The notes below the pieces were generated by a model that saw only the letters and a program-made list of their open reading frames with translations, ran no database searches and had not been told where the DNA came from. Positions 15,201 to 44,954 of a stretch of 64,000 nt of DNA are shown piece by piece; position 1 is the first letter of the stretch, and each line of letters opens with the position of its first letter. Origin of the DNA: a virus. The stretch is taken from positions 10,133-74,132 of the IMG/VR virus record IMGVR_UViG_3300008448_000049. One strand, written 5' to 3'. The position numbers and the translations under genes are program-made.

Positions 15201-18200
15201 GTCATCAACTAAGAACGGTATCTTTACAAGAATCATGAACTTCTTGAAGGAGCTTTTCTCCGGTGTAAACATCAATGATGTTAATTATAGTCCACTAGGT
15301 ATTCCTAAAATACAAGCAATGTATGAGAACTTAAAGCTTGGTAATCTTTCTGGATACAACTTCAATGTTGAGAATAGAGATAAGACTATAGGTGCTTTAG
15401 ATCATGCTATGATTGCTAGTAAGAATGATGAAAACATGCCTGAGCTTGATTTTGAGACTACTAATAAAATAATGAGTAGTGTTAACTCAATCATATCTTC
15501 ATATACTAATACAAGAAATTTAAAAGAAGATACAAGAGTACATAGACAAGTATATAGTTACACAACTACCTTGATGAAAGATAAAACAAGAGCTCTTGAA
15601 GTTTATAAGTATATTAAATCTATTTTTGAAAATGAGGTATTGTCTAATTTGAATAGAGATTTAGCTGCTGCAAAAGCTAAGCCGGATAATGAGTATGAAG
15701 TTATAGCTCTTGAACAAGATATTACAGGTATACAATGGGCAATTAATAACTTTGGTGATCTTACAAACTTAGCAAATAACAAAGATGGCAAAGATGTAAT
15801 AGGTTACCACTTAAAAACATCCAGGTTGTTGACAGAGGAGGATAGAGCAGAGTTACTTGACGAGGTTAGTGAAGTTGATGCTTTAATAAAAGCTAGTGAA
15901 AAGTTTGACAGACCAGGTAATGATGTTGGTTCATATGATATGGCACCGCCTGAGGTTAAGTATGTACTAAGTACAATTCACAAGTGGGAAGGTACAAAGC
16001 CTGTTATGAACAGTTTTGGTATTCAAGAGCTTAGTGATCCTTCTATTGTATGGAATAGAATATCTAGAACACTTAAAGGTACAATGAGTGCTTCAGAGAT
16101 GTATGAAAAATTACAAGCTGCAGCAGGTAAAGATCCTATTATCGCAGACCTGTTAAAAAAATTAGGACCTGTTAAAACTCACACAGCAGCTGAAACAGAT
16201 TTATGGATTAAGTTCTGGACCGTGTTTAACAAAGCTGAGATTCCTTTAATGCAGATGACTGTGTTTAGAGAAAAAGATATTGAGGGTCGTGAGCTTGATG
16301 AGTACTCAATCAAGATTGGATCTAATAACTCAGTGTCTCGTATAGCTCAAACACGTTGGACAAATACATTTAGTACAGTAACTTCTGATTATAGAAAGAG
16401 AGATCCTCAAAAAGCTAATGAGATTTATCTTGATGTGAAAAAAGTAATTGAACAGTTTGGTGTAAAAGACCGTACTGGTAAATATATTTTTGAAGATGCT
16501 AAAAATTCTTATGAGTTTTTTAGAGCAATTGGTATAGAGCTTAGTGATTCTGATGAACTAAGAGATATAGTTAATAAAGGTAAAGGTAAAGCCACTAGGA
16601 TATTTGATAGATTAAACAATATCTTAAACAGAGGTACTGATAAGATTTATAATCTTAAAGACATATTTAAAGAGTATCCAGCTGTTGATAAGATTGCGGC
16701 TTTAAGTTCTGAAACAACATTAACTGACCTAGCTAATGAAGAAGTTAAATTTGCAGACTACGCGTCTAACTATGCTGTAAATAATGCTGAAGGTAATATC
16801 CAATTTGAACAAAGCTTACACAACAGTATAAGTATTATGATCAGTGCCATAAACAGTTCAAAAGATTATGCTGATCTAATTAGTAAACCTTTTATGGCTC
16901 ACTTAGATATTGATAAGAACCCGTTTGCAAAAGCTTCTGTCTGGTTGAATTCCATATATAAAATGGATGAATATAAGAAAGGCAGTACTACTGAGGTTGG
17001 GGTTAAGCGTGATCAAAAATCTGATATCAATCTTAAGGCTGCAATCAACATGTCTAATCTATCTGGTGTGTCAATTGTAAGTGATAAGAGAGATGAAGGT
17101 GTTGCCTCAGCAAGTGCTGATGAATTTACAAAATTAATTCTTGACTTTCACGTGAGTAATGTGATAGGTCGTCCAGAGTTAATGCGTCATGCTGATAAGG
17201 GTACTTCCTTCTCTTTATGGTTAAGTGATATAATAACGCCAGGATCATCAGATAATAAATCTTATGTAGATACAATTGATTTTATTAATCAGCCTTTAGA
17301 TAATGGTAGTCAATACGTGCCGGGTTATGGTAATGCATCACGTGTTTTAAAAAAATATATTGATGCTGAGATGCAAAGGATAACTAAGTTAAAAGCTCTT
17401 AAAGATCAAAAGGATTTAATATATGACGCTAAATATTTAAAGGAGGGTCAAAACTTTGTGATTTTTGAAGATGTACTTAGTCCTAAGACACGTGCATTCT
17501 TATCTAATTATCCTACTTTAGCAGAAGCTGCAGCAGTTGATCCAGATATTAGTAATGATATTGATAGAGAAATAGCCAAGTACTTTGATAATCAATCCAA
17601 ACAAGTTGGTAGGATGATGAACAGTGCTAATTATATTAGTAAGAGTTTAATGGTTAAAACAGCAACTGATGCTAATAAAGCTAATAAAGCAAACGTAACT
17701 AATAAAACTGTTAAAAATGCTTTAATAAAATCTTTTGTTGTAAACAGCTGGATACACAATATTGAGTCAATGGCTGTTATCTATGGAGACATTGCACAAT
17801 ACAAATTAGAAAAAGAAGAGTTCCATAAGCGTAATGCAGGTGCTGGTTCTACTGGTGGATTAATTGCAAGTGATCCAGTATTTATTGAGTATGTAAATAA
17901 TAAAAGCCGGTTATCTAATATTCCTGGTCGGTCAAATACATATGCCGAGAAAATGAAAATCTTTGGCAAGGATGGTCAAACAAAGAAATTAGCTAGTGAT
18001 GGTTCATTCCAGTCAGCTATACTTGAAGATAACAATATACGTTCTGAGTACTTTGAAGACATTGCTAATGCTTTAATAGACTCTGAAGAAAAAAAACTAG
18101 GTAGCAGAGAAAAAGCTATTAAGAAAGTTTTAGGTTTTGAAGTTGACAAGGAAGGAAAAGAAACAGGTAAGCTAGGTACAATAGATGAGCCATTTAAAAA

Positions 18201-21200
18201 TGGTAGTGTATATGCTTTTACTGAGATGAATGAAGGTGATGCTCAAGGCTGGATTACTTTTGACTTTTACAAAGCTACTGCAATATTAGAAGGATCATGG
18301 ACACCAGCTCAAGAAAAACTTTATAATAAAATCATAAATGAAGAACCTGTTGATTACAGTGAAGTGCTTAACTTCTTCCCTACTAAAAAGTATCAGTACT
18401 GGGGCCCTGTCCAACATAAAGACAAAGATGGTAAAGCTATTGACGGCCCGCCGTTAACAGCTTTTTATAAGTTTTCTTTATTCCCATTAATACCTAATGT
18501 AGTTAAAGGTAAAAATCTAGGTGCTTTACATACACGGATGATGGAAAAAGGTATTGACTTTGCTATGTTTGAGTCAGGATCTAAGATATCAAACTTTACA
18601 AGAATCAACGCTGATGGTAAAGCTGATAAAGATAAATTTTATTCTAGTGTTGATGGTCAAGATAGAACAGTAGATGCTACAGGAGATATGGTACCTAATA
18701 CTGTGTTCTTACAATTCTTAAAAAAGCAATTAGAGATAGCTCCATACTTTAAAGGTAAGGTTACATTCCCAACTCAAATGCGTAAGTTAATTGAGAATGG
18801 TTTAATGGAAGCTGGTGTACCTACAGATTATGAAATGCACTTGCCTGTTAAGCAAAGAGAAAAACTTTGGAGATCACTTTCTCTAGAAAAAAAATTAGAA
18901 AATTCTCAGTTTTATAGACTTGTTAAAAACTATGAGAAAGATCTTTCTGATTTAACTAAGCTTAAGATGAAAAAGCTTGAGGCTGAAGCTAGCATTAAAC
19001 GTGATGAAGATGGTAATGTTATATTCAATGAAAAACTTGCTGAGTTCATTATAAAAGAATTAGACAGACAAGACTTAGCTGAGCATGAGATAGGATTTAT
19101 TAAATCAGGAACAAACAATACACTTGCTCATGATTTATCTTATTCATTATCTGCAGAGAAGATTGAGAAGATCTTAAACTCTATTGTAGTTAAACGTCTT
19201 GTCAAACAGAAGTTTAAAGGGGAAGGTCTGATCCAAGTATCAGGTGCTGGTTTTGAAGATACTCTGCGCGGCAAACTTACTGATGAAGAAAAGGCTAAGT
19301 ACGGTACTAATGGATTAGCTTTTTATAAAAGAAAAGGTGGGCCAAATGGAACAACCTCAGCAATGAAAGTTAAGATTGCTTTACAAGGTAGCTTTGAGAA
19401 CTTGCTTTACTTGAAAGATAAAGATGGTAAAGAGATTGGTACTATTGAAAGATTAAATCAACTGCTTAAAGATGAGTCTTGGTTAGATATAGGTGATCAC
19501 CGTAAAATGGTTAGCATCACTGGACCACGTATTCCTACTCAAGAGAATAACTCTATGGAGTTTGCTGAGGTTTATGAGTTCTTACCTAGAGAAGCTGGTA
19601 ACATTGTTATACTTCCTTCTGAGATTGTAGCTAAATCTGGTGGTGACTTTGATATTGATAAGATCACATTCATGATGCCTAACATTTCCTCCGGTATAAA
19701 TTGGGCTAGCTGGTTAGAAGAAGGATCTGGTAAACGTGAAGAGTTACAAAAATCTACTACCCTAGATCTATCAGCAGAGAATGTTAAACGTGTTATTGAT
19801 AACAGAAAAGCAGATGAACTATCTGTTGAAGATCAAGCTGTATTAAGAATACTAGCTGAAAACTCTGATAAAAATGTAAAGTTTCCATTTGACAGTAAAA
19901 CTGAAGAGGGTCTTGAGAACAGAATATTAGATGATATGAAAAACATATTGTCTCTTAAAGAGAACTACGTGAGTCTTGTACGTCCTAATGGTACTGATAT
20001 TGTTAAGCCTCTTGCTGATGAGCTTTCATCTAAGGTTATGGATTATAATCCTAAGAAGCGTTTATATGATGCACCTAATAGTTCTCGTATTGCGGGTACC
20101 CGTTTGTTTGAGATTCCGTACAACATGTATAAGCATACATCAAACAGTATTGGTAAACAAACTTTAGGTCTTGGTGCTGTAGATAATACTTTTAATACAG
20201 TGTTTAACCGTATTGGTGCTAGAATGAACTACGAGTATTGGGGTAGCAGGAATGTTAAAAGACGTTTGGATTTATTATTTAATCACAATACTTTACAAGA
20301 TGATCAAGGCCGTGATGTAATTTCATTATCTCACTTGATGGATGTTAATAATGATAACAGTATATCTTCAATAATTGGTCAGCTTATTAATGGCTGGGTG
20401 GATATTGCTAAGGATGCTTGGATCTTTAACTTACAAGGGAACAAAGAGATATCACCATCTTTATTATTTTTAGTTCAAGCTGGTGTACCTTTAAAACAAG
20501 CTGTGTATTTTGTATCTCAACCTATTATCAGAGAGTATGTAAAAGAAATGCAGCAAGCTAAAAGCACATTTGCTGGACCTATGGGTAAAGGAACTGATAA
20601 TCCTAACTTGTTTAGAGGTGAAGCGCGTAAAGTAATCTTTAAAAAACTAGGTTATGACGCATCTCAAATGGCTGTCTTTAATGAGAATAATGAGAAGAAG
20701 CAAGAGTTTTTAGATAAACGTACCTTAGAACTTACTGATAAGAAAACAGGATCTGAGATTGATTTCTTTAATCCTGATAAAGTTGAAGCTAATTTAAAAA
20801 ATAAAATTGATGCTTACGCTAATGCTGTTAAAGAGCAACAAGAATCATCAGATTCAGAAGCTCCATTGAATTACAATTATGACGTTAAAGATGAGGCTAT
20901 ATTCTTACACTTCCTTGAAGTAGAAGAGATGACTAATTCAGCAACTAAGTTTAAAATGGCTTTAAATGTTGATACAACTAAAACAAACAACATCTTTCAA
21001 GCTCAAAATAAAAATGAGATCATTAAAGATTTACAAACTGATGGTAAATTACCAGCAGAAATTGTAAAACTTATCCAAGAGGAATCTCCAATAGGCAGCT
21101 TTTTTACACAAGACTTTCAAATTGGTTTATGGAAAAATCTATTTAAGTTGAGAAATGACGATGATCTTAACAAGTGGATCTTGAATAAGACTAGACAAAT

Positions 21201-24200
21201 GGGCTTTAAAGATGAGGTTGATGAAACCTTTGGTGATGATGAGAGATTTGTAAACAACTTGAGAAATGACTGGATAAGCTTTTTATTCCAAAATCAGATA
21301 CGCAAATTTGATATAGATAAGGTTAAAGATTATAAAGGTCTTGTAATTCAGGATACTCTTGGTGTTAAGTTAGCACCTAGTATTAAGTATGGTGTGTTTG
21401 TAGCTCCGGATAAAACGGGAGCACTGACTGTTTATATGGATAAAGTAAAGTTGAGACAAGACTTTGCAAAACTATCTAACAGCACAAGCTTAGAAACTGC
21501 AACCCTTCTTCCTGACGGTACAATAATTAAACCGGCTGATGTTGATGCTGCAGCGTTCCCTACACCTGATACCTATTACAAATTTGTAATTGAGAGAGAG
21601 TTATTAAGAGCTATGTATCCTGGTAAAACAAAATGGTCAGTATTATTAGAACGTGCTGATGTTTCCCGCAAATTGAAAGACGCATTAGAATCTGGGCCAA
21701 CTTTTGAAGGTGAATCAAAACAGAAGAGAGAAGCTCGTATTAATACTGAAGTTTATGAAGAGACTCTACGTGACATGGCTTTAGAGAATACTTATAACAC
21801 TTGGAAGATGTTCCAAAGTCGTACCTCTATGGCTGATCAATTTAATGAGATTGCTGCATTATATCCAGAGCTTAGAAAAAACTACAGCTTAATGAATATA
21901 CTTACAGGTACAATCCGTAATGATAAAAACAATTCCAACCGTATTGGTAACTTACAATTACTGGATTCTCTTTTAGATGGTACTAAGTTGAACTTGTTAC
22001 ATCAGAACTTAAAAGACATGTCTGATCCTACTAAGTTAAGAATCAATGTTAAGTCTGCTCAAGAGAGAACTCGTATTGCTGAATTCTTTAACAAGTTTGG
22101 TCTATATGCGTTTTTACAATCAGGTTTAAATACTAGTGGAAGATTCTCATTAACAAGAGTAGTTCCTCAAGAGATGTTTACTGCAATGATGAGTGAATAC
22201 ATGGGTGACTTTATGAAGAACATGAATGAGCTTACCTTTGAACGTTACTATACAAAGTTTAAAGCTATCAATAGTAGAGCTGGTTCAACATCATACCGTG
22301 ATTACACAGTGCCTGAATTTGATATGGCTGCAGATAAAAATAAAGTTGTTGACAATCCTGTTGGAAGTGCCAAAGAATTAATGTTTAACGAAAAAAAATC
22401 AAGAATAGATAATTTTTATCTTGACAATGCTGGTAACAAACTTTATCATGCTAATGAGTTTAGCCTTAATAAAGAAGATACTATGCAAGCTATAACTATG
22501 ACTCAAGCTGCTGACATACTTGAAAGCAGACCTACAGAAGTAATTATCTTTAATGGTACTGATGGAACTACGGCTGGTCAAGGTACAAAAGGTGAGGCTG
22601 CATTTGATGCTTCCCTATCTACACACAGTAATCTTATTGCATTCCCTGTTAAAAAGAGTTATGAAATGATAAGTGGTAATATACCAAACAGCGCACTTAT
22701 AACTGATATCTCAATAGAAGAAGCTGAAAGAATGAAAGCTGAGATTAAACAACAGGAAAAAATCATTAATAACCTTGTTTCAGGTCCTAAACTAGAAGTG
22801 GGAGTATATGCTGAATACAAAGGTGATAATTACATTGTGACTAAAAAGCTTGATAATGGAACATGGCAACTTTATAATCCTGACATAGGTAGTAAACTAG
22901 CAGTTAGTCCTAGCAACTTTGCATTACTTATGGATAAACCTATTTCTCTAACCAATAGAGATGTTAAGTACTGGGTAAGTCCATTACACAATAATGCTAT
23001 TATATCTCAAGTAAGCAATAACAAAATGAACTGGCCTGATGAGAATGGTGTTAAAAGAGAAATAATGGCTAAGGTACAAAGTCAAAGTTCTAACAAAAAT
23101 GCTGATCAACAAAACATTACTCAACCTGCTCAGAATACTTTTAAATTTGCTGACGGAACTATTATTGATACGCCATTCAAACTTAATGAGCAACAGGAGA
23201 AAGCGTTGTTATCTCTTGAGAATTTTTATAACAAGCCAGGAGAGTATGATAATCAAATTACCTTGCTTGGTTATGCCGGTACAGGTAAGACTAGTATCAT
23301 CACAATCTTTGATAACTATTTAAAAAAGAAATTTGTTAAACCTCTATACAGTTCTCCAACACACAGAGCTAATGCTGTAACTAAGATGAAGAATCCTAAA
23401 GCTGCAGTATATACTTTACATAAATTGTTTGGTTTAAAAGGTCAAATCAAATTTGAAGATGGTGATTATGATTTAAGAGATTTGAATTTTGCAGCATTTG
23501 ATAAAGATGGCAAGCTTAATAAAAACGCTAAAGTTCAAAAGGGTGATATCTTAATTGTTGATGAAGCATCAATGGTTAATGACGCGCTTTATGATTTCTT
23601 AGAGAAGTTTAAACAGATTCTTAATCTTAAGATTATTTACATGGGTGATCCAGCTCAGTTAAAACCTGTTAAGCAAAAAGACTTGTCTAAAACTTTTGAG
23701 AAAGGAACACAGTTACAACTTACCAAAGTTGAAAGAACAGGTGACAATCCTATATTAGAAGAAGCGACCAACTTGAGAAATGGTAAAGATTTTAATTACC
23801 AGACTAAAATGATTGGGGAGCAAGGTGTTGAATACTCTGATGAAGCTAATTTCACAAACAGAATAATTGGAGAAAACTACACAAGTGATGAGTTTAAAGA
23901 TAACAAGCTTTATTTTAGAATTCTATCTGCAACCAATGCTGTTCTTCCAGGTATTAACAGAAGAGTAAGAGAGTTACTTTACGGTGATGAAGCTGATAAA
24001 CAACTTGTGAAAGGTGATTTATTGATGGGTAATAATAACTTTGATATAGATTATAAGACCAAGCAACCATTGATTATAAACAGTGGTGACTATATAGTTG
24101 ATAGCATTGAGGAGTCTGTAAAAACATTACCTGTAGGTAACAAGACAATCAGCTTTAATGGTTTTCAAGTTAGACTTAAGAATGTATTAGATCCAGAAGA

Positions 24201-26130
24201 GTCTGCTAAGAGTGTATTTATTGTAAGCAATAATGAGTCAGATGAGAAGTTAAAAGATTTCATGAATGAGATTGACCGTTTAAATAAACAAGCTGAAGAT
24301 TTTAGAAATCGCGGACAGTTTAGTGCTTCTGCTCAACTTTTTGCTGAGGCAAATGAACTTCAGTCTAGTCTTGCATTTATGAAAGATCTAGTATCTGATA
24401 ACAACAAAGTAAAAGTTAAAAAGACTTTAGACTATGGTTATGCTCACACTATCCACAAGTCACAGGGAGGAACCTATAACAAAGTACTAATACTTGCTGA
24501 TACTATTGATAGTCATAGAGATCCAGAAACACGTCAACAACTTAAGTATGTTGCAATGTCAAGAGCTTCTGAAAAGGTATATGTATCTACTAGTCATGAG
24601 TTAGGTACACCAATCATACGTGATGGCCTTGTCGCTCCTGGTGACGTAGCTCCAACTGTAGAGCCTGTTGAAAGTAAGCAACCACAAGCTTCTACAAGTA
24701 CTAAACCTGATATTATTTTACCAATTGGTACTTCAGGCAGTGGTAAATCTACTTGGATAAAATCTTTACCTAAAGGGCAATTTACTTTAATATCTCCTGA
24801 TGAAATGAGAGTGGAGTTTACCGGAGATATGAATGATAAATCTAAAGATGATGAAATATATAAGGCTGTAACAGAAAGAGCTATAAAAGCTGTAAAAAGT
24901 GGCAAGCAAGTAATCATTGATACTACTAATCTTAAGAAGGAAAGAAGAAGACCATTCATAGAAGCTGTCAAAAAAGCAATGCCTAATGCAAATATTCAGT
25001 ATAAGCTTATGCCATTGAATGCAGAATTAGCTAAACAAAGAATAAAAGCAGATATTGCTGCAGGAGTTAATAGAGCAAATGTATCAGATGAAACCATAGA
25101 TAGACATGCTGCATCATATAAAGAGATGTTAGAAGATATTAAATCTGAAGATATGTCTAATTATGATACTCAGCCACAAGCTTCTATAACTACTGATAAG
25201 TTTGCTAAGAAGAATATATTTACTGTAAAGCCTATACAAACAGCTGATACAAAAGCTATTATTAAAGCAAGTATAGCTACTCAGTTTATAGGATTTGGTG
25301 AAGGTATTGAAAGAAGCTCAACAGAAAGTTATAGACAACAAGTAGGAGCATTAGCTAATACAGGTAACTACTCAAAGGATGATGTTATATTTGTGTCTAT
25401 TGGTGGTAAAAGACCTGCTAACAATTTAGAACTCAGGAAAGCTCAACAAGATAGAACTATTAGAGAAGCTTTAAAAGCTATTGAAGCAGGTGCTACTATA
25501 CTTACTGATAATATAAATTACATACATACTGATAATAAAGGTAATCTTCAAAATGTAAATATGAGTGTAGAAGAATTTACTAAAACACAAGGTTTGTATA
25601 ATGAAGGTGAAAAAAGACTTGCTAAAAATCTTGAATCTAAAGGATATAACTACTCTGAAATAACAGTAGATGGTCAGCTTATTGGTACATGGAGTAAGCC
25701 ACAAGAAAGTAACATACCACAAGATACGCGTAATGGTGAGGACGTGCAGGATGATAGTAAAACTCCCCGTCCAATTAACGGTATGGTCATGGACCCCTTC
25801 TTTAAAAAGAAAATTGATAAGACTATACAGTCTATGCAACAGAAAAAGAATGCGGGTATGACGCTTGACTTTCCTGTTAATGGTATTGGACAGCACATGA
25901 TTGGAGCTGACCCTAACACTGGAAAATTAATTGGTGATATTAAGCCTATTGCATTATCAAGTTTCGTATATTTGTCTGAGCAGCTATTTGAGAAATTTGG
26001 GTATGTTAATCCTAACTATGAAAAGGTACTTGGATACATTGGGGAACAGAGCCCGATCCAAGCTGCTTCTGAAGTTACTGATGACATGCTTGACACAGCC
26101 CTTAGCTTTTGCTTTAACAATATAGTATAA
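12205..26130 (+). CDS. Virion-packaged two-barrel RNA polymerase polyprotein (zincin + RNAP + SF1 helicase + P-loop kinase + further domains), 4641 aa
   Basis: RIPTQ (~19528) and GGDFDIDK (DFDID at 19645-19659) match crAss-like RNAP catalytic motifs. DAQGWIT at ~18238. HEAWH at 14989. Helicase motifs GYAGTGKT, DEASM, GDPAQLKPV, HKSQG and YVAMSRA. Kinase motif GTSGSGKST. Confidence 0.9.
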   Translation: MSCLSQEEIRDALFDLVAGDLYDKAKEDQVIDLPAYIKEVYEFVKESSEDEATAISAAAMAPTIVKLILALDTELVDKIETKNPDLESDNLALIKKFKNNTDAVRETVGATKPVAIDDSTLKSSASIKVTDERPTSKIKESFNRFMTWAFQTFRVDIKNYENPKDNDWMKSKVEEALNFTVQKKINQALFEQGINDSSEMKLDGVEGGVYLRAMNGDTLRLNYAPLIPKTEKGWTPFLSKYDIYMVLTNEAGVPIQFDPEGTVVKDGQLSYLRAKSKAPMDAKGNYISHEDKEALEKYINKNVNNDPYYSSAISKKTGSEAVKVIAKSIQEQLEMMAKSYNPLYGTKKLTDKENEELKNRATDELKKEYAVLEKMRDYVIANSSNPDKFLLSVMTGTSEGFVPYSPYVTTPLKDINFEQGFQPRVIKEIQSATSNVYQSGVYFDYPNIDEPISINKKPLVQQDDILNSVIDLFTKDLWMTINGVLQPVPIGRREELINQFIVNDLHHVYFMADRKSGTINYEDKDGTINIMVDGTRYPLKFDGSKSGQEAAAAAIRKQLSTGMIVYDENGRYPEDKSINTKPKALKAASALNTQIVYAEYETDENGIKTIKPNDLERVNKPGVYAIQKGTNYDFVGTNGQPEYDYFHANVPSIVIVDKLIEPGYDEISFTQEGDKVILNTKNASYKDFLKNNFTTNAVPYNYNNTDEKGKIEVVNSSVTFSPTAESMIKLAGGEKNSGAVDNQEEIARLRAEEQELLKREIPNIDAYKVDGKVNPFLIPTTEEREKYEKIWEDYDKKISPLLKFAPAEPKAAETKPAEPTIEPLTTKTTASLSPEDILNSLNDMSNESDFERNSRLKLSGARGSKEQLDAAAEWYAKSPLKEHFPFKVVLAALNAQKPGPAARWAVNGITLFRYFNNPDVSGDYTDLYHEAWHGFTQTFLTPEEREAMYEEARKKKGSFTDYNGKRVAFADAKWKQLEEYLAEDFRAYMMSGGKIKDKTSSTKNGIFTRIMNFLKELFSGVNINDVNYSPLGIPKIQAMYENLKLGNLSGYNFNVENRDKTIGALDHAMIASKNDENMPELDFETTNKIMSSVNSIISSYTNTRNLKEDTRVHRQVYSYTTTLMKDKTRALEVYKYIKSIFENEVLSNLNRDLAAAKAKPDNEYEVIALEQDITGIQWAINNFGDLTNLANNKDGKDVIGYHLKTSRLLTEEDRAELLDEVSEVDALIKASEKFDRPGNDVGSYDMAPPEVKYVLSTIHKWEGTKPVMNSFGIQELSDPSIVWNRISRTLKGTMSASEMYEKLQAAAGKDPIIADLLKKLGPVKTHTAAETDLWIKFWTVFNKAEIPLMQMTVFREKDIEGRELDEYSIKIGSNNSVSRIAQTRWTNTFSTVTSDYRKRDPQKANEIYLDVKKVIEQFGVKDRTGKYIFEDAKNSYEFFRAIGIELSDSDELRDIVNKGKGKATRIFDRLNNILNRGTDKIYNLKDIFKEYPAVDKIAALSSETTLTDLANEEVKFADYASNYAVNNAEGNIQFEQSLHNSISIMISAINSSKDYADLISKPFMAHLDIDKNPFAKASVWLNSIYKMDEYKKGSTTEVGVKRDQKSDINLKAAINMSNLSGVSIVSDKRDEGVASASADEFTKLILDFHVSNVIGRPELMRHADKGTSFSLWLSDIITPGSSDNKSYVDTIDFINQPLDNGSQYVPGYGNASRVLKKYIDAEMQRITKLKALKDQKDLIYDAKYLKEGQNFVIFEDVLSPKTRAFLSNYPTLAEAAAVDPDISNDIDREIAKYFDNQSKQVGRMMNSANYISKSLMVKTATDANKANKANVTNKTVKNALIKSFVVNSWIHNIESMAVIYGDIAQYKLEKEEFHKRNAGAGSTGGLIASDPVFIEYVNNKSRLSNIPGRSNTYAEKMKIFGKDGQTKKLASDGSFQSAILEDNNIRSEYFEDIANALIDSEEKKLGSREKAIKKVLGFEVDKEGKETGKLGTIDEPFKNGSVYAFTEMNEGDAQGWITFDFYKATAILEGSWTPAQEKLYNKIINEEPVDYSEVLNFFPTKKYQYWGPVQHKDKDGKAIDGPPLTAFYKFSLFPLIPNVVKGKNLGALHTRMMEKGIDFAMFESGSKISNFTRINADGKADKDKFYSSVDGQDRTVDATGDMVPNTVFLQFLKKQLEIAPYFKGKVTFPTQMRKLIENGLMEAGVPTDYEMHLPVKQREKLWRSLSLEKKLENSQFYRLVKNYEKDLSDLTKLKMKKLEAEASIKRDEDGNVIFNEKLAEFIIKELDRQDLAEHEIGFIKSGTNNTLAHDLSYSLSAEKIEKILNSIVVKRLVKQKFKGEGLIQVSGAGFEDTLRGKLTDEEKAKYGTNGLAFYKRKGGPNGTTSAMKVKIALQGSFENLLYLKDKDGKEIGTIERLNQLLKDESWLDIGDHRKMVSITGPRIPTQENNSMEFAEVYEFLPREAGNIVILPSEIVAKSGGDFDIDKITFMMPNISSGINWASWLEEGSGKREELQKSTTLDLSAENVKRVIDNRKADELSVEDQAVLRILAENSDKNVKFPFDSKTEEGLENRILDDMKNILSLKENYVSLVRPNGTDIVKPLADELSSKVMDYNPKKRLYDAPNSSRIAGTRLFEIPYNMYKHTSNSIGKQTLGLGAVDNTFNTVFNRIGARMNYEYWGSRNVKRRLDLLFNHNTLQDDQGRDVISLSHLMDVNNDNSISSIIGQLINGWVDIAKDAWIFNLQGNKEISPSLLFLVQAGVPLKQAVYFVSQPIIREYVKEMQQAKSTFAGPMGKGTDNPNLFRGEARKVIFKKLGYDASQMAVFNENNEKKQEFLDKRTLELTDKKTGSEIDFFNPDKVEANLKNKIDAYANAVKEQQESSDSEAPLNYNYDVKDEAIFLHFLEVEEMTNSATKFKMALNVDTTKTNNIFQAQNKNEIIKDLQTDGKLPAEIVKLIQEESPIGSFFTQDFQIGLWKNLFKLRNDDDLNKWILNKTRQMGFKDEVDETFGDDERFVNNLRNDWISFLFQNQIRKFDIDKVKDYKGLVIQDTLGVKLAPSIKYGVFVAPDKTGALTVYMDKVKLRQDFAKLSNSTSLETATLLPDGTIIKPADVDAAAFPTPDTYYKFVIERELLRAMYPGKTKWSVLLERADVSRKLKDALESGPTFEGESKQKREARINTEVYEETLRDMALENTYNTWKMFQSRTSMADQFNEIAALYPELRKNYSLMNILTGTIRNDKNNSNRIGNLQLLDSLLDGTKLNLLHQNLKDMSDPTKLRINVKSAQERTRIAEFFNKFGLYAFLQSGLNTSGRFSLTRVVPQEMFTAMMSEYMGDFMKNMNELTFERYYTKFKAINSRAGSTSYRDYTVPEFDMAADKNKVVDNPVGSAKELMFNEKKSRIDNFYLDNAGNKLYHANEFSLNKEDTMQAITMTQAADILESRPTEVIIFNGTDGTTAGQGTKGEAAFDASLSTHSNLIAFPVKKSYEMISGNIPNSALITDISIEEAERMKAEIKQQEKIINNLVSGPKLEVGVYAEYKGDNYIVTKKLDNGTWQLYNPDIGSKLAVSPSNFALLMDKPISLTNRDVKYWVSPLHNNAIISQVSNNKMNWPDENGVKREIMAKVQSQSSNKNADQQNITQPAQNTFKFADGTIIDTPFKLNEQQEKALLSLENFYNKPGEYDNQITLLGYAGTGKTSIITIFDNYLKKKFVKPLYSSPTHRANAVTKMKNPKAAVYTLHKLFGLKGQIKFEDGDYDLRDLNFAAFDKDGKLNKNAKVQKGDILIVDEASMVNDALYDFLEKFKQILNLKIIYMGDPAQLKPVKQKDLSKTFEKGTQLQLTKVERTGDNPILEEATNLRNGKDFNYQTKMIGEQGVEYSDEANFTNRIIGENYTSDEFKDNKLYFRILSATNAVLPGINRRVRELLYGDEADKQLVKGDLLMGNNNFDIDYKTKQPLIINSGDYIVDSIEESVKTLPVGNKTISFNGFQVRLKNVLDPEESAKSVFIVSNNESDEKLKDFMNEIDRLNKQAEDFRNRGQFSASAQLFAEANELQSSLAFMKDLVSDNNKVKVKKTLDYGYAHTIHKSQGGTYNKVLILADTIDSHRDPETRQQLKYVAMSRASEKVYVSTSHELGTPIIRDGLVAPGDVAPTVEPVESKQPQASTSTKPDIILPIGTSGSGKSTWIKSLPKGQFTLISPDEMRVEFTGDMNDKSKDDEIYKAVTERAIKAVKSGKQVIIDTTNLKKERRRPFIEAVKKAMPNANIQYKLMPLNAELAKQRIKADIAAGVNRANVSDETIDRHAASYKEMLEDIKSEDMSNYDTQPQASITTDKFAKKNIFTVKPIQTADTKAIIKASIATQFIGFGEGIERSSTESYRQQVGALANTGNYSKDDVIFVSIGGKRPANNLELRKAQQDRTIREALKAIEAGATILTDNINYIHTDNKGNLQNVNMSVEEFTKTQGLYNEGEKRLAKNLESKGYNYSEITVDGQLIGTWSKPQESNIPQDTRNGEDVQDDSKTPRPINGMVMDPFFKKKIDKTIQSMQQKKNAGMTLDFPVNGIGQHMIGADPNTGKLIGDIKPIALSSFVYLSEQLFEKFGYVNPNYEKVLGYIGEQSPIQAASEVTDDMLDTALSFCFNNIV
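23170..24595 (+). other. Dda/RecD-like SF1 helicase domain within the RNAP polyprotein
   Basis: LNEQQ, Walker A GYAGTGKT (23269-23292), PTHRA, IVDEASM, GDPAQLKPV, YGYAHTIHKSQG and YVAMSRA. Confidence 0.9.
24706..25165 (+). other. Polynucleotide kinase-like (AAA_33-type) P-loop domain within the RNAP polyprotein
   Basis: IGTSGSGKSTW, ISPDEMR and IIDTTNL, followed by a lid-like segment ELAKQRI. Confidence 0.8.
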
Positions 26131-26135
26131 CCAAT

Positions 26136-29100
26136 ATGATAACATGTCCTAATCTTAGTAATCCTACTGTGAAAGCACAGTGGGATGCTATTGCTAATAA
26201 CCCTGCTCTAGGTAATAGAGAAGCCATGCGTGAATTCATGGAAGCTGAAATGAATAACAGGCCTATTGGTACACCTGAACAGGTGATGGCTAAACTTGAA
26301 GCTAGGGAAGTAGTAAACCCTATAGCAAGTCATGACAAGTTTGTTGCAGATATGAAAAATATTATAGCTGCTAAGTCTAATGACCCTGTACTTACTGACC
26401 CAGATACACTCTACGGCTTTGCTTCCGTAGTACAACCTATTAATACTAAATCATTATCTGTTACTGATAACAGTAACGGCCGTGCTATGGAAGTCTTAAA
26501 CAAGCTTTCTGAGGCAACAGGCATTAATTACTCTTTCATTACACCGGAGGAAGCAGTAATCATCACTGCTAATTCCAAGAACCCATACACTATAGGTAGA
26601 GCACCCGCATTTTTCCACGGGGGCACTGTATACTTCATTAATGGTATGGTTAATACAGAACTTGCTTTCCATGAATTTGCTCACCCAATTGTTCGCACTA
26701 TACAACAGGACAACCCTGTTCTATTTGAAAAACTATATATGGACGCTATTAGAGCTGACCAGACTCTTTTGGATGAAGCTATTGCAGAGTATCAAGATTT
26801 ACAAAAGGCACTTGACAATGCTGTTGAAGATGAAGAGAAAGATGCTATCAGACTTAAGTTACAGAAAGCTGTTGCGGAAGAAGTAATTGTTAAAGCACTT
26901 ACTAGAGGAGCAATGCTTAAAGAAGCGGGTATTAAACCAAGCACTGGATTAGCTAAAGCACTTAACAATATATTAGCTGCTATTAAAAAGATGCTGAGGA
27001 GCGTCTTTGGCAATAAAGTAAATGTAGCCAAGTTGGATGAAACTACTTCACTTGACAAGCTTGCCGAGATGTTACATGCCGGCGGGAACTTTGTTATAAA
27101 CACTGAGACTGTAAGCCAGGCGGATGTTGTTGCGTATAATCAAGACTTTCAAAATTATGTGAATGATTTAAAGCAAGCTACTGAAGGTGACAAAGGCCAA
27201 GCTGTGATGGCTATGGCTAGAAGAATTTATGAAGGTGCTACTGATCAAATTGAAATGATTATGAAGAACAAGAATTATCAGGAGATGATTAACTTGTTTG
27301 CCGATCAATACAACCGTGGTGACTTACAGGAGATGCGTGCTAATGTATCCCGTTATGCCCGTGAGCTTGAGACCAAAGCTGAATCAATGATTGAAGATAT
27401 CCAAAAGACTCAGAGTCAGGTACAATCTGTTGTAGGCGCTATGCTCCGTTTAAAAGTCATGATGACTAAAATGGAAGAGCACTTGAATGAATTAAGAAAG
27501 GACGCTACTAATAGAGACAACGTACACAGAGCTTACTACTATGCACGAGTACTTGAGTATTGGCAAAAGTATATTTCTGAAGCTCAAGATATGATGATTA
27601 AAGCAGGTGCCAAATCTGATTCTCCAATGAATCAATTGCTTGGTAGTATAGAAACTTCTATGAAAACTTCTGCTAAACACATCAACCAGATGAACAATGA
27701 AGGTATCTCTGATATCTTATGGGAACAATGGGAGAGCATGTCTAATAGAGCTGAAGAGTTATTTAAAGATAAGATTAAAAGATTAGAAGACCGGAACGCT
27801 AGCCAAGCTGCAATAAATAAAGAGTACGTTAAATTCTACGGTATGAATAAAGCTGATTATGAGCGTTACAAAATGCTTCAGGCTAAACAAGAATCAGGTC
27901 AGGATTTAACTTATGAAGAGAGTAAGGATTTAGAGATTGGTAAGAAAGCCAGCTTTGATGGTATAGTTATGTCTCGTGAAAAAGTTGCCCGTGCTATTCG
28001 TGGTGAGGGAGCAGATGCTAGATACATTGAGTCTTATTTTGAAGGATACCTTTATAGTAGTGACCCCGTAATTGGTGGCTTTGCTTTGTACTTTAAAAAC
28101 AACATGACTGAGATGGAAGCTAGAGTACAATCTAGAGTTAGCGGCATGTCGGGAGCACTTAAAGAATTAATTGATGATGCTGGCATAAACTTTTTAAAAC
28201 CAGGAGAGCTTGGTAAAAAGATAGGCTTTGTGGATAAGTTTGGATACATTGATAAGAATGGGACTTTCCAACAAAAAGAAGTATGGGCAATGCTTAATCC
28301 TTACAAGGATTATAGATATGATGTTGATAGGTTTAACAATGAGTTAAAAGGTTTACGTGACCGTTATAACAGAGACCGTAGTAAAGAGAACCAGGAAGCG
28401 TTTGCTGCTAAGCTTGCAGAGAAGAATGCTCACATGCGTAAATGGATGCAACAAGAATACGTTGATGAGTACTATGAAAAAGATGACTTACTTGGTAAAG
28501 ATGCATCAGATACTGTAGGACAAAGAGCTAAGTTCTTGAGAGATGAAATCTTTAATAGAATGGAGATTATTAATCTTGCAGCTAATAGAGATGACCAGTT
28601 AGTAGATAACACTAAAGAGATGGACGATCTGTGGAAAGAGTACAATCAACTGTATTCCTCCTATTACTTAAACGGACAAAAGAAAACAGGTGTTGATCTT
28701 GAAGTTGCCCAACGTTTACAACAACATAGAGATCTTACTCGCAAGTTCCATGAGTATAAACCTAGAACTGGTGTATATGAGAATGAACTAGCTAAGAAGG
28801 AACAACAGATCCGTGACAACTTAATCTCATTACAATATGAAGAAGGTACTGAAGAGTTTGATGATCAGTTTGAAGCTTACCGTGATATGTGGATTAAAGC
28901 AAATACAGTTACTAAAATTAAACCTGAGTTTTATGAAATACGTTCAAAACTAATTGAGAATCTTAAAGAGATATTAGGAAGACCTGCAGCTAGACTTAGA
29001 CAACAATTAAAAGATCTTGAGGCTAAAGGTATTAAAACCGCAGCTGACAGAGCGTTAAAAAAAGACTTAGAAGATAAATTAGTCTCTGCTGATACTAAGG

Positions 29101-31952
29101 CTAAGAAGACTGATTTTACTGAATCATTTAAAACTATCTTGGACATTGCTTCTGGTTACAGAGACAGTGATGGACAACCTATTGGTTCAGATATGCTTGA
29201 TGAACGTAAGGCTGTTATCAAAGAAGCTCAAGAGGAGATGGAGAATGCACGTAATGAATGGGCTGGCTACTCAGGATTAACTCGTGACGAGATGGAGCTT
29301 TTAATTGATTTGTCTAAAAAGAAAAAAGAGAATGGTGAATTAGAACCAAATGAGTTTGAGAAGTTTAAAGAATTACTAAACAGGCAAGATTCACTAGGAC
29401 TTACTAAGAATGAACGTGCTGAGATTACAGGCTTGTTTGGAGATCTTAGAGAGCTACAAACTAAAGACCCGACTACTTATTATGTTGATGCTATTAATCA
29501 CTGGATGGATATAATAGACTCACAAGAAGTGTATGATGAATTAAACTTCAATGAGTTTAATGCAAGCAACATGGATAAGCTTTATAATCCGAGTGTATTA
29601 AGCAAGATGTTTGCTAAGAGTCCTGAGTTTGAAAAATGGTTTAAAGCAAATCACCTTGAGAAAAATTATAGAGACAAAGATGCAAAGTCTGTAACAAGCT
29701 ATGAAAGATTATATGTATGGAACATTATTAAACCTAATGACCCAAACATGTATGAGACAAAGCCGTCTCTTAAATACTTTACAAGAGTTGTAAAAAAAGA
29801 GTACAAGAATGGTTATGATAAAAACACAGGTGAAGTCAAATTAATAATAGGTGTACATAAAGATAACAGAGGAGAGTGGTTACCTAAGCAAGATGTTAAT
29901 TCACCTTATTACAACCAAGCTTACTTTGACTTACAAAAAAATGATCCTAAATTATTTAAACTTCTTGAGTTTCTTAAAGAAGAACATTTAAAATCACAGG
30001 ACGGTCTTTCAAAACGTGGTAAGTTGTATTATGATTTCCCCCGCTACGGAATGAGTGGTTTAGAAGCTGCCCAAGCAAAAGGTATAAAAGGAACAGCTGC
30101 AGAAAAGCTTAGTCCTATTTCAGCTATGCTCACAAAGATTAAGCAATTTTTTACGGGAGCAATGGATGAGCAGGGTAGTATTTATAACGCGGATATGGCT
30201 AACGAGTTGGTTAGAGCTGATGGTTTTAATGACCAGATAGAGAACATACCAATGCAAGGCTTATTTAATCTAGAACTTAAAGATACTTCAACAGATGTTA
30301 TAAGTGGTATACTACGTTATATCTATAACGCTGAACACCACAAACAGTTGGTTAAAATGAATCCTATTGCTCAAGGTTTAAAGAACTTGCTTGAAGATCC
30401 TAATAATAAACTTAAGGAACTAGATAAAATTAACCGTTCAAACTTTATAAACTTTGGTGCTACAACTTACGCTAACAAGAAAGGTAAGTATATCCGTAAG
30501 GATGCAATTGCCCAGTATTATGAACGTGACTTTCAGGGCCAGTCTATAACAGGATTTGGTAAAGATATACCATGGATACAGAATGTACAGAGACACTTGT
30601 TTGGTAAAGCAGCGTTTTCCTTCTTTGCCTTTAACATACCATCTGCTTTGAAGAACATGTTTACTAAAAAGTTTCAGAGTTTAATACTTGCTTCAGCAGG
30701 TAATGATCTTACAGTAAGTACCTTGTTTAAGGGAGAATCTTGGTCAATGAAATACATGATGAAGCTTAGTGGTTCTGATATCTATGCTAAGGGGCCTAAG
30801 TCACTGGAGCATCAGATAGGTGAGATATTTGATCCAAGCCCTAATAGATTTCAAGAAAAGTTTCATGAGTCAATCACAAGAACATTTGCAAAAGATGTAG
30901 TGAGTACGGGTTGGTTTTATAACTTCCGTAAATGGACTGAGGTACAAGCAACCATGCAAACATTTGCTGGCATGATGTTCAAGAAGAAAATACCTATGGG
31001 TAATCAGATGATTGATTATATGGATGCATGGGAACTTAATGCTCAGGGTAAGATACAACTTAAAGCGGGTATTGATCCTACGTGGGGTATTACGTATGAT
31101 GAAGAAGGTAACATGAGTGTAGGTGCTGAATTTAAAGCATTTAAAAATAAAGTTGGTGCTGTTAATACAAAACTGGATGGAGCTTTTGCTAAGCTTGATC
31201 AGCCTTTGATGCAACGTCTTATAGCATTTAGATTTGTGCAGTTCCTTAAAAAGCATATGATCACAATGAGTATTAACAGGTTTGGAAGAAACCGTATGGC
31301 TCCAGGATATGGTCAGGAAGATGAAGGTTACTATGTGCAAGCTGTTAAGTCTTTACTTGGGGCTATTAAGAATAGAAACATAAATGATATGACTAGAGAA
31401 GATAGAGCAGCTTGGATGAGAATTATTACTGAAGTTGGTGTGCTTTATTTAATGGGTCTATTAATGGGACCTTTATTTGGATGGGATGAAGACGATGAAG
31501 ATAGATACAAGAAGCTACGTGAAAAGAGTGGTAAAATGACAATACCTTTCTTAGCTGATGAAGAGCCTGGACAAGAATTTAACTTAGCAGGTTTCATGGA
31601 ACTGCATGCTATGAATCAAATGCTTCAGATCCGTTCAGAGAATGAGCAGTTTATTCCATGGCCAGGTATGGGTCTTGATAACTTATCAACTGTTGTGGAT
31701 CTTAAGTCATTAGCCTTTGGACCAACAACAGATACATGGCAACGTATAGGAACTGACCTGGTTAATATATGGGAAGGTAATGAACGTCAGTTTTATAAAC
31801 GCCGTAGTGGTCCATTCAACTGGTCACAACAAGGCGGTCGTCAGATATGGGCCCATATAGGTAAGATGTTTGGTGTAACAGGTTCTAACATCTCACCAGG
31901 TGATATGATTACAAACTGGGATAAGGCACAAAACATGTCTGCCAAGAGATAA
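26136..31952 (+). CDS. Large ejected protein with N-terminal zincin-like domain (1938 aa)
   Basis: HEFAH at 26670-26684 followed by EEVIV. Long helical body with a C-terminal hydrophobic segment. Follows the RNAP gene as in crAss-like phages. Confidence 0.75.
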   Translation: MITCPNLSNPTVKAQWDAIANNPALGNREAMREFMEAEMNNRPIGTPEQVMAKLEAREVVNPIASHDKFVADMKNIIAAKSNDPVLTDPDTLYGFASVVQPINTKSLSVTDNSNGRAMEVLNKLSEATGINYSFITPEEAVIITANSKNPYTIGRAPAFFHGGTVYFINGMVNTELAFHEFAHPIVRTIQQDNPVLFEKLYMDAIRADQTLLDEAIAEYQDLQKALDNAVEDEEKDAIRLKLQKAVAEEVIVKALTRGAMLKEAGIKPSTGLAKALNNILAAIKKMLRSVFGNKVNVAKLDETTSLDKLAEMLHAGGNFVINTETVSQADVVAYNQDFQNYVNDLKQATEGDKGQAVMAMARRIYEGATDQIEMIMKNKNYQEMINLFADQYNRGDLQEMRANVSRYARELETKAESMIEDIQKTQSQVQSVVGAMLRLKVMMTKMEEHLNELRKDATNRDNVHRAYYYARVLEYWQKYISEAQDMMIKAGAKSDSPMNQLLGSIETSMKTSAKHINQMNNEGISDILWEQWESMSNRAEELFKDKIKRLEDRNASQAAINKEYVKFYGMNKADYERYKMLQAKQESGQDLTYEESKDLEIGKKASFDGIVMSREKVARAIRGEGADARYIESYFEGYLYSSDPVIGGFALYFKNNMTEMEARVQSRVSGMSGALKELIDDAGINFLKPGELGKKIGFVDKFGYIDKNGTFQQKEVWAMLNPYKDYRYDVDRFNNELKGLRDRYNRDRSKENQEAFAAKLAEKNAHMRKWMQQEYVDEYYEKDDLLGKDASDTVGQRAKFLRDEIFNRMEIINLAANRDDQLVDNTKEMDDLWKEYNQLYSSYYLNGQKKTGVDLEVAQRLQQHRDLTRKFHEYKPRTGVYENELAKKEQQIRDNLISLQYEEGTEEFDDQFEAYRDMWIKANTVTKIKPEFYEIRSKLIENLKEILGRPAARLRQQLKDLEAKGIKTAADRALKKDLEDKLVSADTKAKKTDFTESFKTILDIASGYRDSDGQPIGSDMLDERKAVIKEAQEEMENARNEWAGYSGLTRDEMELLIDLSKKKKENGELEPNEFEKFKELLNRQDSLGLTKNERAEITGLFGDLRELQTKDPTTYYVDAINHWMDIIDSQEVYDELNFNEFNASNMDKLYNPSVLSKMFAKSPEFEKWFKANHLEKNYRDKDAKSVTSYERLYVWNIIKPNDPNMYETKPSLKYFTRVVKKEYKNGYDKNTGEVKLIIGVHKDNRGEWLPKQDVNSPYYNQAYFDLQKNDPKLFKLLEFLKEEHLKSQDGLSKRGKLYYDFPRYGMSGLEAAQAKGIKGTAAEKLSPISAMLTKIKQFFTGAMDEQGSIYNADMANELVRADGFNDQIENIPMQGLFNLELKDTSTDVISGILRYIYNAEHHKQLVKMNPIAQGLKNLLEDPNNKLKELDKINRSNFINFGATTYANKKGKYIRKDAIAQYYERDFQGQSITGFGKDIPWIQNVQRHLFGKAAFSFFAFNIPSALKNMFTKKFQSLILASAGNDLTVSTLFKGESWSMKYMMKLSGSDIYAKGPKSLEHQIGEIFDPSPNRFQEKFHESITRTFAKDVVSTGWFYNFRKWTEVQATMQTFAGMMFKKKIPMGNQMIDYMDAWELNAQGKIQLKAGIDPTWGITYDEEGNMSVGAEFKAFKNKVGAVNTKLDGAFAKLDQPLMQRLIAFRFVQFLKKHMITMSINRFGRNRMAPGYGQEDEGYYVQAVKSLLGAIKNRNINDMTREDRAAWMRIITEVGVLYLMGLLMGPLFGWDEDDEDRYKKLREKSGKMTIPFLADEEPGQEFNLAGFMELHAMNQMLQIRSENEQFIPWPGMGLDNLSTVVDLKSLAFGPTTDTWQRIGTDLVNIWEGNERQFYKRRSGPFNWSQQGGRQIWAHIGKMFGVTGSNISPGDMITNWDKAQNMSAKR

Positions 31953-43733: not shown

Positions 43734-44954
43734 TTAATTTAATTTAATTTGTGGACCTACTAAATCTGGGTTTAACGGGGACTGACTACTCAATACCCAA
43801 AGCATTCTTCCGCGTGCAGGTGTTGGCGCGGATGCTTCACCGTCTGTAAAATAAATCAGACAGGTAAATTTATGTGTGTTCTCGTTATAATAATCTATAA
43901 CCGGTTGGAAGCTTGTGCCTCCTCTACCATGAACTTTGAATTCAGCTCTATGATTAAACTTGCTTATGTCACTGATGGCTGTATCAGCTTGTATTACTGT
44001 AATCTCAGTACCAGTCTTGTGAATATGATACAACTCTTGTACACACTCATTTAATTCATTAGTACTTACAGAACCTGAGGTATCAATTGCAAACAAGATA
44101 TGACGGCGAGGCTTGATCTTCAGACCAGGATTCTCTTCATATCTCTTATTGAATTTCCTACGTATTTTCTTTGTATAAACTTTAGTTGATCCACCTGTGA
44201 ATCTTCTAAGATATCCTTTCCAATCAAACTTGGGAGGCTCTGTTTTATTTATGTTATCAAGGATCTCGGCAAACTCTCCAGGTATATGACCTTGAGATTT
44301 CTTAACTTGATCAGCAACTTCTTTAAGAATATGCTCAGTTTGTTTACGGATTAACTTCTGTGTTGCTTCTGGTAGCGCATCCATATCACCCCAACCAGAA
44401 TGATCAGGAAGATTAACTTTAATATTTCCGTCACCATCTACAGAGATTGTTACCTCGCACTGACCTTGCCTCATTCCTTCTAGTATCTTATCCAGGTTAG
44501 GACAAGTACCAGGTTGCTTAGCAGCTTTACCTAGTTTATCATAATAGTACTGAGTACCTTTTCTTGATTCAAGATTTAGTTCAGGAAATTTATCAAGGGT
44601 CATACCACCAGGAGGAAGGAAGTCTTCATGAATGAACTGGTTAATCTCCAAGTCCATTGCTATGTTGGCTATCTCATGATCAGTCAGATGTTTAAAGTCT
44701 GTGATGTGAAACAAGCCTATGTGCAGTAGCTCATGCTTAAGTAAACCTATCCTATGCTTAGGAGTTAAATTATCCCAAAATTTTGGGCCTATATCTAGTT
44801 GATAGTTAATTCCATTTAAACTTACACAAGCTGTAGAAACTCTATCACTCCACCTCTTATTCAGCATTATCAGGAACATCCCATAAAATGCTTCCGTCAG
44901 CATTAGTTCCTTGGAGGTCATTGCCAACTGTTCCGGTCTTGTAGTCATAGTCAT
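43734..44954 (-). CDS. Metallopeptidase + vWA protein (DUF2201-like)
   Basis: HELLH zincin motif. MIDAS DTSGS, GRGGT.F.P and FTDG. Confidence 0.9.
   Translation of the reverse strand: MTMTTRPEQLAMTSKELMLTEAFYGMFLIMLNKRWSDRVSTACVSLNGINYQLDIGPKFWDNLTPKHRIGLLKHELLHIGLFHITDFKHLTDHEIANIAMDLEINQFIHEDFLPPGGMTLDKFPELNLESRKGTQYYYDKLGKAAKQPGTCPNLDKILEGMRQGQCEVTISVDGDGNIKVNLPDHSGWGDMDALPEATQKLIRKQTEHILKEVADQVKKSQGHIPGEFAEILDNINKTEPPKFDWKGYLRRFTGGSTKVYTKKIRRKFNKRYEENPGLKIKPRRHILFAIDTSGSVSTNELNECVQELYHIHKTGTEITVIQADTAISDISKFNHRAEFKVHGRGGTSFQPVIDYYNENTHKFTCLIYFTDGEASAPTPARGRMLWVLSSQSPLNPDLVGPQIKLN

Follow-up and report, generated by a model that had tools for sequence, protein, structure and literature searches.

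How does a string of enzyme modules come to lie inside the small domain that closes a giant phage protein, and what might it do there? The question is raised by a stretch of viral DNA of 64,000 nucleotides (nt), referred to as the window, that spans nt 10133-74132 of the 74-kb linear IMG/VR virus record IMGVR_UViG_3300008448_000049 (CheckV completeness estimate of 61%). Five giant open reading frames (ORFs) succeed one another on the plus strand of the window, and the fourth encodes a protein of 4,641 amino acids (aa) containing a crAss-like virion RNA polymerase (RNAP). The reading that we prefer, and consider probable, is that the tail of this protein is one folding unit of ~185 aa resembling DUF7831, in which a surface loop between strand 2 and a long helix has been opened by an insert, and that the insert is cargo for counter-defence or repair that would be injected into the cell with the RNAP.

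Two halves of one C-terminal domain

A sequence-only reading of the window had proposed that two peptide stretches near the end of the RNAP ORF are the halves of a single DUF7831-like domain, with about 1,000 aa nested between them. Both peptides were found where that reading had placed them, within the single uninterrupted ORF: RPTEVIIF...ALITD corresponds to aa 3442-3501 (nt 22528-22707) and KKKID...FEKFG to aa ~4529-4601 (nt 25789-26005). The placement of the halves held, their extent had been somewhat underestimated, and the insert measured 1,022 aa.

12205-26130, plus strand: giant ORF for the crAss-like virion RNAP-containing protein, 4,641 aa, open frame throughout
22486-22707, plus strand: N-terminal half of the DUF7831-like domain (N-half), aa 3428-3501, consisting of a helix, strand 1, a Gly-rich loop and strand 2, and ending at a conserved Asp
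22708-25773, plus strand: nested insert, 1,022 aa, aa 3502-4523, defined as the gap between complementary profile matches
25774-26127, plus strand: C-terminal half of the DUF7831-like domain (C-half), aa 4524-4641, defined by profile and BLASTP

The C-half comprises, in this order, a long helix, strand 3, a GIGQ loop, the helices of the segment YLS...FGYVNPNY and a terminal helix with Cys4636. The split point lies directly after Asp3501, a nearly invariant residue, and the domain resumes at Ile4524 (ITD before the insert, ING after it).

A profile of 183 states was built from 32 uninterrupted members of the family, split proteins being excluded. Positions 6-90 of this profile matched aa 3428-3519 (16.7 bits) and positions 73-182 matched aa 4524-4637 (95.7 bits). 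The domain of uninterrupted relatives therefore covers both halves in complementary register, as proposed by the sequence-only reading. The split was exact in a relative designated L003 (profile positions 8-72 and 73-182). Presented as an isolated piece, the N-half scored 25.5 bits against the same profile. None of 5,000 shuffled versions reached this score (best, 11.0 bits), the best of 74 other windows taken from the same protein scored 6.3 bits, and the N-half still scored 14.9 bits when its closest uninterrupted relative was left out of the profile. Pairwise BLAST of an uninterrupted tail against the tail of the 4,641-aa protein detected the C-half only (BLASTP, E 7e-10), detection of the N-half requiring the profile. 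The invariant residues of the family are all retained in the two halves, indicating at the sequence level that the split domain is under selection and is no relic.

The uninterrupted form is the usual one, in line with what the proposal would predict for homologues. Searching 1.8 billion representative sequences with the 200-aa uninterrupted tail gave 48 matches, most of which were a single-stretch domain at the extreme C-terminus of proteins of 3,200-3,700 aa. The domain is uninterrupted in at least 31 of 39 viral loci, and in the distant relative L005/L004 the two halves are contiguous, ~5 residues apart. Among GenBank phage records, no match to the domain was found by tblastn, and the RNAP region had no match at the DNA level.

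AlphaFold2 models were made for relatives only, namely the uninterrupted tail and the tail of L003, which carries a 186-aa insert. Rows of an alpha/beta module found in the insert that MAFFT had misaligned onto the host domain in the underlying alignment (A2) were taken out before folding; in A2, the gap of L003 is at the same position as the insert of the window. The uninterrupted tail (~200 aa) was modelled with a mean predicted local distance difference test (pLDDT) of 84 and a predicted template modelling score (pTM) of 0.80. The model contains two strands, the insertion loop (residues 77-83), and then a long helix, a third strand and five helices. Thus, two strands precede the insertion loop and one follows it, so that the only sheet of the domain needs both halves. 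Both halves of the L003 tail were modelled with a pLDDT of 80-97. The single-domain PDB chains of ~150 residues that best fit the uninterrupted model also span the split L003 model (residues 19..340/352), and the VIA-align Z score was the same for the uninterrupted and split models (4.6-4.9). These models indicate that the two halves form one compact unit.

The resemblance to DUF7831 (PF25176) was detected at the level of the family, as the sequence-only reading had suggested. PF25176 was matched by 11 of 20 uninterrupted members, with a best E-value of 5.9e-7, below the curated cut-off of 27 bits. One uninterrupted relative aligned with profile positions 7-97 of 118, across the insertion point (22 bits, E 1.5e-4); the bit scores, where reported (22, 21.1 and 15.6), were all under 27 bits. 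PF25176 had no match across the window's own record. In a Foldseek search of BFVD with the model of the uninterrupted relative, DUF7831 proteins occupied ranks 1, 2, 3, 5, 7 and 8 (E 2e-4 to 3e-2, probability 0.66-1.0, TM score 0.35-0.44). They originated from Rhizobium phages, Caulobacter phages and giant viruses, and BFVD matches also included segments of giant proteins from cr130_1 and cr131_1, two uncultured crAss-like phages. The model of the uninterrupted relative thus shares its fold with DUF7831-annotated proteins. PF25176 proteins are otherwise stand-alone, of ~130-220 aa, in phages and giant viruses, in contrast to the copy of the window, which is split by 1,022 aa. No paper mentioning DUF7831 was found in a literature search.

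No other name could be given to the fold. Comparison with 48,161 chains by VIA-align gave best Z scores of 4.6-4.9 with enrichment in macro domains (Z 3.4-4.9 among the top rows, root-mean-square deviation >4 Å), too weak for an assignment, and a macro identity was supported neither by a Foldseek match in the PDB nor by a sequence match. Foldseek against the PDB returned no match at E <0.1 for the uninterrupted domain model, and the profile of the host domain matched no PDB sequence even at E<=10.

Modules of the insert and their exchange

Between the two halves, the sequence-only reading had listed an SH3/KOW-like segment, a helicase, a kinase and an alpha/beta domain. The last three were confirmed by family profiles or, for the alpha/beta module, by the existence of 25 homologues; the SH3/KOW-like label was not confirmed, since no family matched aa ~3528-3600. 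The insert is a string of self-contained modules parted by short conserved linkers.

22708-23004, plus strand: helical spacer (aa 3502-3527) and beta-rich segment (aa ~3528-3600), no Pfam match
23182-24585, plus strand: superfamily 1 (SF1) helicase, Dda/RecD-like, aa 3660-4127, from Pfam, PHROGs and PDB profile matches
24679-24702, plus strand: linker repeat 1 (QPQAS), a direct repeat at the left edge of the kinase cassette
24709-25188, plus strand: P-loop polynucleotide-kinase-like module, aa 4169-4328, Walker A motif GTSGSGKST, from profile matches
25171-25194, plus strand: linker repeat 2 (QPQAS), a direct repeat where the kinase cassette ends and the alpha/beta cassette starts
25189-25695, plus strand: uncharacterised alpha/beta module, aa 4329-4497 (~170 aa), conserved
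25696-25773, plus strand: acidic linker, aa 4498-4523, conserved in all close variants, shared right-hand recombination boundary

The helicase matched AAA_30 (1e-17), UvrD_C_2 (1.6e-10), PHROG 325 (Dda-like, 1e-71) and the PDB chain 9kwf_B (3e-14), the PHROG 325 match starting at aa 3562, upstream of the Pfam start at aa 3660. Its family motifs are intact (I, GYAGTGKT; II, VDEASM; III, GDPAQL; V, HKSQGG). The following module matched AAA_33 (8e-17), PHROG 505 polynucleotide kinase (1e-14) and the kinase domain chains 4jst and 4gp7 (1e-5); its P-loop and family profile designate aa 4169-4328 as a putative polynucleotide 5'-kinase. This module is flanked by the two QPQAS linker repeats, which are in frame, 492 nt apart and identical at 21 of 24 nt.

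The 25 homologues of the alpha/beta module are all unnamed and none has a Pfam family. The sole hint to the nature of the module is a weak match of one of 22 members to cpYpsA SLOG (E 0.0019). The module profile matched no PDB sequence even at E<=10, and the ESM Atlas provided no usable match for the module or for its homologue P0058. The module is unrelated to the host domain (hhalign probability of 1%).

If the loop were a landing pad for cargo enzymes, as the sequence-only reading had suggested, relatives should carry different inserts at the same position. This is what was found.

Window: spacer, helicase, kinase and alpha/beta module
P0002: helicase and NADAR
L002 and, identically, L046 (from another sample): helicase, alpha/beta module and 2OG-Fe(II)/AlkB-like oxygenase
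L003: a single module of ~186 aa (alpha/beta module alone)
P0040 (4,984 aa, from another lineage): beta-rich segment and helicase, identified by eye, in an insert of ~740 aa
L042: helicase, oxygenase and ~680 aa without a family

P0002 is 94% identical to the protein of the window over 4,195 aa (98% in the last 144 aa), and its NADAR domain sits in the cassette position occupied in the window by the kinase and the alpha/beta module. Among the split variants, no module is as constant as the helicase. At L042:2398-6330, at least 1,200 aa are located upstream of the C-half and include the SF1 helicase and a weak match to a 2OG-Fe(II) oxygenase; the N-half is beyond the fetched locus.

Comparison at the DNA level located the boundaries of the exchanged block. 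The window and L002 are homologous (90%) up to nt 24684, within the first QPQAS repeat, and again (98%) from nt 25700. Against L003, the homologous segments stop at nt 22725 and restart at nt 25701. The loop of the domain thus forms the left boundary of the variable block, and the acidic linker the right one. Together with the diversity of contents, these breakpoints support the landing-pad proposal.

The stretch was present in sequencing runs from lake, freshwater and sediment metagenomes of 15 studies; runs sharing few words with it, and the uncovered parts in runs X4 and X6, were left out of the reading. A scan of metagenome contigs recovered four lineages only, all of which were already in the set of relatives. 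Contigs from independent runs bridge nt 22708 and nt 25696-25773, that is, both junctions, indicating that the split architecture is neither an assembly artefact nor a chimera. In run X3, an independent lake metagenome, an in-frame joint connecting nt 24695 to nt 25188 drops exactly the 492-nt kinase cassette, and another, connecting nt 25171 to nt 25697, drops exactly the 525-nt alpha/beta cassette, with 9 nt shared at the joint. The same run also contains the kinase-bearing form. These results show in-frame gain, loss and exchange of modules at the linkers, both between phages with 90-98% identity on the two sides and within one natural population.

Insertion is not confined to this loop. 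NADAR was found in the middle of P0019. P0010, P0017 and P0021 harbour an insert of 45-90 aa at profile positions ~122-124, before the YLS helix, and P0037 harbours ~305 aa (aa 3071-3375) near profile position ~155, before the last helix, the Cys-bearing tail remaining terminal. P0022 contains the kinase and alpha/beta modules inside the RNAP core (aa ~2190-2350 and the segment after the DFDVDK motif), and P0024 contains the alpha/beta module near the N-terminus (aa ~270-390). The modules are a shared mobile pool that moves between permissive loops of the giant RNAP proteins.

The RNAP chassis and the ends of the giant proteins

The DFDxD-type catalytic motif was defined for gp66 of phage phi14:2 (10.1101/2020.03.07.982082). 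This motif was present in the 4,641-aa protein, and aa ~2100-3100 matched crAss001 (its 'putative RNA polymerase') as well as many further Crassvirales (tblastn, E 1e-14, ~24% identity). Since the protein combines the two properties by which crAss-like RNAPs are recognized, and since the runs come from lakes, freshwater and sediment, the source is, as judged from these matches, an environmental phage of the crAss-like group, and the protein can fairly be called an RNAP.

19645-19659, plus strand: DFDID catalytic-type motif of crAss-like RNAPs, aa 2481-2485, read from the translation
14989-15003, plus strand: HEAWH motif (HExxH, zincin-like), aa 929-933, in a block conserved in all full-length relatives
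26136-31952, plus strand: next giant ORF, 1,938 aa, sole cysteine C4 (26145-26147), possible docking partner of the C-terminal domain

The minus strand of the window carries replication genes (DNA polymerase, exonuclease VIII-like gene and HNH gene). The HNH endonuclease-like gene (406 aa, 43737-44954, minus strand; PHROG 1314, 5e-59) is located among them, and a family A-type DNA polymerase (35139-37031) and the exonuclease VIII-like gene adjoin it.

In 39 of 39 viral loci, 0-14 aa separate the end of the domain from the stop codon. The only cysteines of the 4,641-aa protein are C3 (12211-12213) and C4636 (26110-26112), and the 1,816-aa giant protein encoded upstream has one, Cys1813 (12188-12190), four residues from its end. 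The 19 full-length relatives (3,231-4,984 aa) contain 1-4 cysteines each; a cysteine is present at position 3-5 in 16 of them and within 6 residues of the C-terminus in all 19. The next ORF starts 0-15 nt after the stop codon of the domain, or overlaps it, and begins with M(x1-4)Cys-Pro in 25 of 26 loci, L044 having Cys-Ile. For a complex between the domain and the N-terminal 60 aa of the next protein, prediction yielded an ipSAE of 0.48, versus 0.00 for the best control, a range (0.60 or under) in which the calibration placed 7 of 80 solved complexes and both of the 2 mismatches that passed. At least 69% of contacts were shared between runs, and the pLDDT of the partner was at least 72. The predicted complex lends weak support to docking of the tail domain onto the N-terminus of the next protein, predictions of this grade being wrong more often than not unless the pairing was already likely. 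We infer that the C-terminal helix must remain terminal, perhaps to link consecutive ejection proteins. Under this constraint, new modules would enter only through loops and be nested rather than appended; it may thus explain why nesting occurred in place of appending.

Cargo role and competing explanations

Mass spectrometry and an ejection model have identified gp47, gp49 and gp50 of crAss001 virions as RNAP-associated cargo, expected to be ejected partly unfolded (PMC10172136), and early transcription by gp66 of phi14:2 requires its translocation into the cell (10.1101/2020.03.07.982082). By homology to these two phages, the modules of the window would be delivered together with the RNAP, either before the DNA or along with it, and would be present before any phage gene is expressed. 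The surface loop between strand 2 and the long helix is opened after the conserved Asp, the insert being held by the helical spacer and the acidic linker. Because the modules that could be identified (SF1 helicase, polynucleotide kinase, NADAR and AlkB-like dioxygenase) all act on nucleic acids or reverse their modification, their most likely role would be pre-emptive repair or counter-defence for the incoming genome and the early transcripts. NADAR enzymes reverse ADP-ribosylation by DarT, and phages deploy them against DarTG (PMC11543638, PMC11825919); the NADAR of P0002 would, for example, counter DarT-type ADP-ribosylation of DNA. The last helix, with its near-terminal cysteine, would have to stay at the C-terminus, which would impose nesting of the modules, and this helix may connect with the N-terminal Cys-Pro of the protein ejected next. 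A further-reaching version, which we regard as speculative, is that the tail domain is a head-to-tail coupler of ejected giant proteins, its near-terminal cysteine meeting the Cys-Pro start of the following protein, and that its loop, since this end has to be kept free, is an evolvable cargo port, in which freshwater crAss-like phages hot-swap ready-made counter-defence enzymes (NADAR, AlkB-like, kinase and a new alpha/beta enzyme) by short-homology recombination at the linkers.

Several observations weigh against the interpretation as injected cargo nested in one domain. The window halves alone gave no PF25176 match at E<=10, and relatives matched only below the cut-off. Packing of the halves was read indirectly, from the model of L003, which is 81% identical in the C-half, rather than from the protein of the window, and the insert in that model had low confidence (pLDDT 30-67). 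Each of the X3 joints is represented by one short-read contig, with a shorter side of 59 and 90 nt, respectively. The presence of the kinase and alpha/beta modules at other sites of P0022 and P0024 indicates that the loop is a favoured port and not the sole one. The enzyme functions of the modules are predictions from sequence, and a kinase that has neither a ligase nor a phosphatase as partner makes up only part of a repair pathway. Finally, presence of the window protein in the virion and its injection are proposed by homology.

It is possible, if doubtful, that the nesting is real and that the modules serve the early transcription and RNA handling of the phage itself rather than counter-defence. 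The helicase would then be a transcription or R-loop factor, the kinase would process 5' ends, and the AlkB-like and NADAR modules would maintain the single-stranded template. Such roles are consistent with the fusion of the modules to the RNAP, with the strong transcription of single-stranded DNA by gp66 of phi14:2 in vitro (10.1101/2020.03.07.982082), and with the constancy of the helicase. However, most relatives have no insert, so that the modules are dispensable for transcription, and the anti-DarT role of NADAR is documented in phages (PMC11825919). Rapid presence or absence and exchange among near-identical phages is also the pattern of an arms race, and this fast turnover fits counter-defence better than housekeeping.

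Another explanation, which we consider unlikely and which would refine rather than replace the cargo reading, is that the giant protein is processed as a polyprotein. Its linkers would be cut by a host protease or by the HExxH region, which would free the enzymes after delivery, the halves of the domain staying together non-covalently or being discarded. The conservation of HEAWH in relatives and of flexible linkers on both sides of each module is compatible with such processing, and the HEAWH region might process the giant protein. Polyvalent proteins bearing peptidases are known (PMC5512222), and it has been suggested that a domain of gp66 is cleaved or refolds (10.1101/2020.03.07.982082). 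Against this, no Pfam peptidase family matched the 4,641-aa protein at E<=1, no evidence of cleavage sites was found, and both halves are strongly conserved in split proteins, which argues for the need for a reconstituted domain.

That the halves are two independent small domains, with the enzymes in an inter-domain linker and nothing nested, is very improbable. It would account for the pairwise BLAST result, significant for the C-half only, and for the C-half alone providing most of the profile score. The distribution of the strands, two before and one after the insertion point, the pTM of 0.80 across the whole 200 aa, and the alignment of single-domain PDB chains across both halves of the split model all contradict it, as does the fact that the Pfam model and the single-domain DUF7831 proteins (130-220 aa) span the junction. 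A selfish element of intein or homing type, or a chimeric assembly, deserves hardly any consideration: inteins and introns are abundant in crAss-like phages (PMC7886860) and an HNH endonuclease gene lies elsewhere in the window, but scans of the whole protein revealed no Hint or homing-endonuclease domain (Pfam at E<=1, PHROG), the frame is open throughout, contigs of several independent runs bridge the junctions, and the variants recur in separate samples.

The cargo reading relates the protein to three known systems. With crAss virion RNAPs (gp66 of phi14:2; gp47, gp49 and gp50 of crAss001), it shares giant size, the DFDxD motif and a location in a block of consecutive giant genes. In contrast, gp66 is about half the length of the 4,641-aa protein, the C-terminal domain was not matched by tblastn in cultured crAss-like phages, and a literature search found no description of nested enzyme cassettes in crAss-like RNAPs. 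Polyvalent proteins (Iyer, Burroughs, Anand, de Souza, Aravind 2017; PMC5512222) contain many enzymatic domains per polypeptide, are shuffled fast, are delivered with the DNA and are thought to be active in the first moments of invasion. The window protein is likewise multi-domain (Pfam, PHROGs), but its modules are nested in one loop of a terminal domain instead of following one another end to end, and its chassis is an RNAP; PMC5512222 makes no mention of NADAR, AlkB, polynucleotide kinase or crAss RNAPs. Orphan NADAR and DarG-like antitoxin mimics of phages are free early-gene products (PMC11825919; PMC11481870), whereas the NADAR of P0002 is predicted to be pre-made and carried inside a virion protein. 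Thus, domain insertion into loops and injected multi-enzyme proteins are known kinds; the port in a DUF7831-like terminal domain, the in-frame exchange of cassettes at linkers in natural populations, and the link to strictly terminal cysteines are new.

Phages that are 90-98% identical on both sides of the loop and differ in the enzyme that it carries constitute a natural experiment that may reveal which host defences matter in lakes. The modules are nominated as candidate pre-packaged anti-defence enzymes, including the uncharacterised alpha/beta family. That a small terminal domain accommodates more than 1,000 residues in a single loop points to a possible site for foreign proteins to be carried into cells by crAss-like particles. 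Finally, the terminal cysteines and the nesting suggest how ejection proteins of megadalton scale could be ordered and linked (compare PMC10172136).

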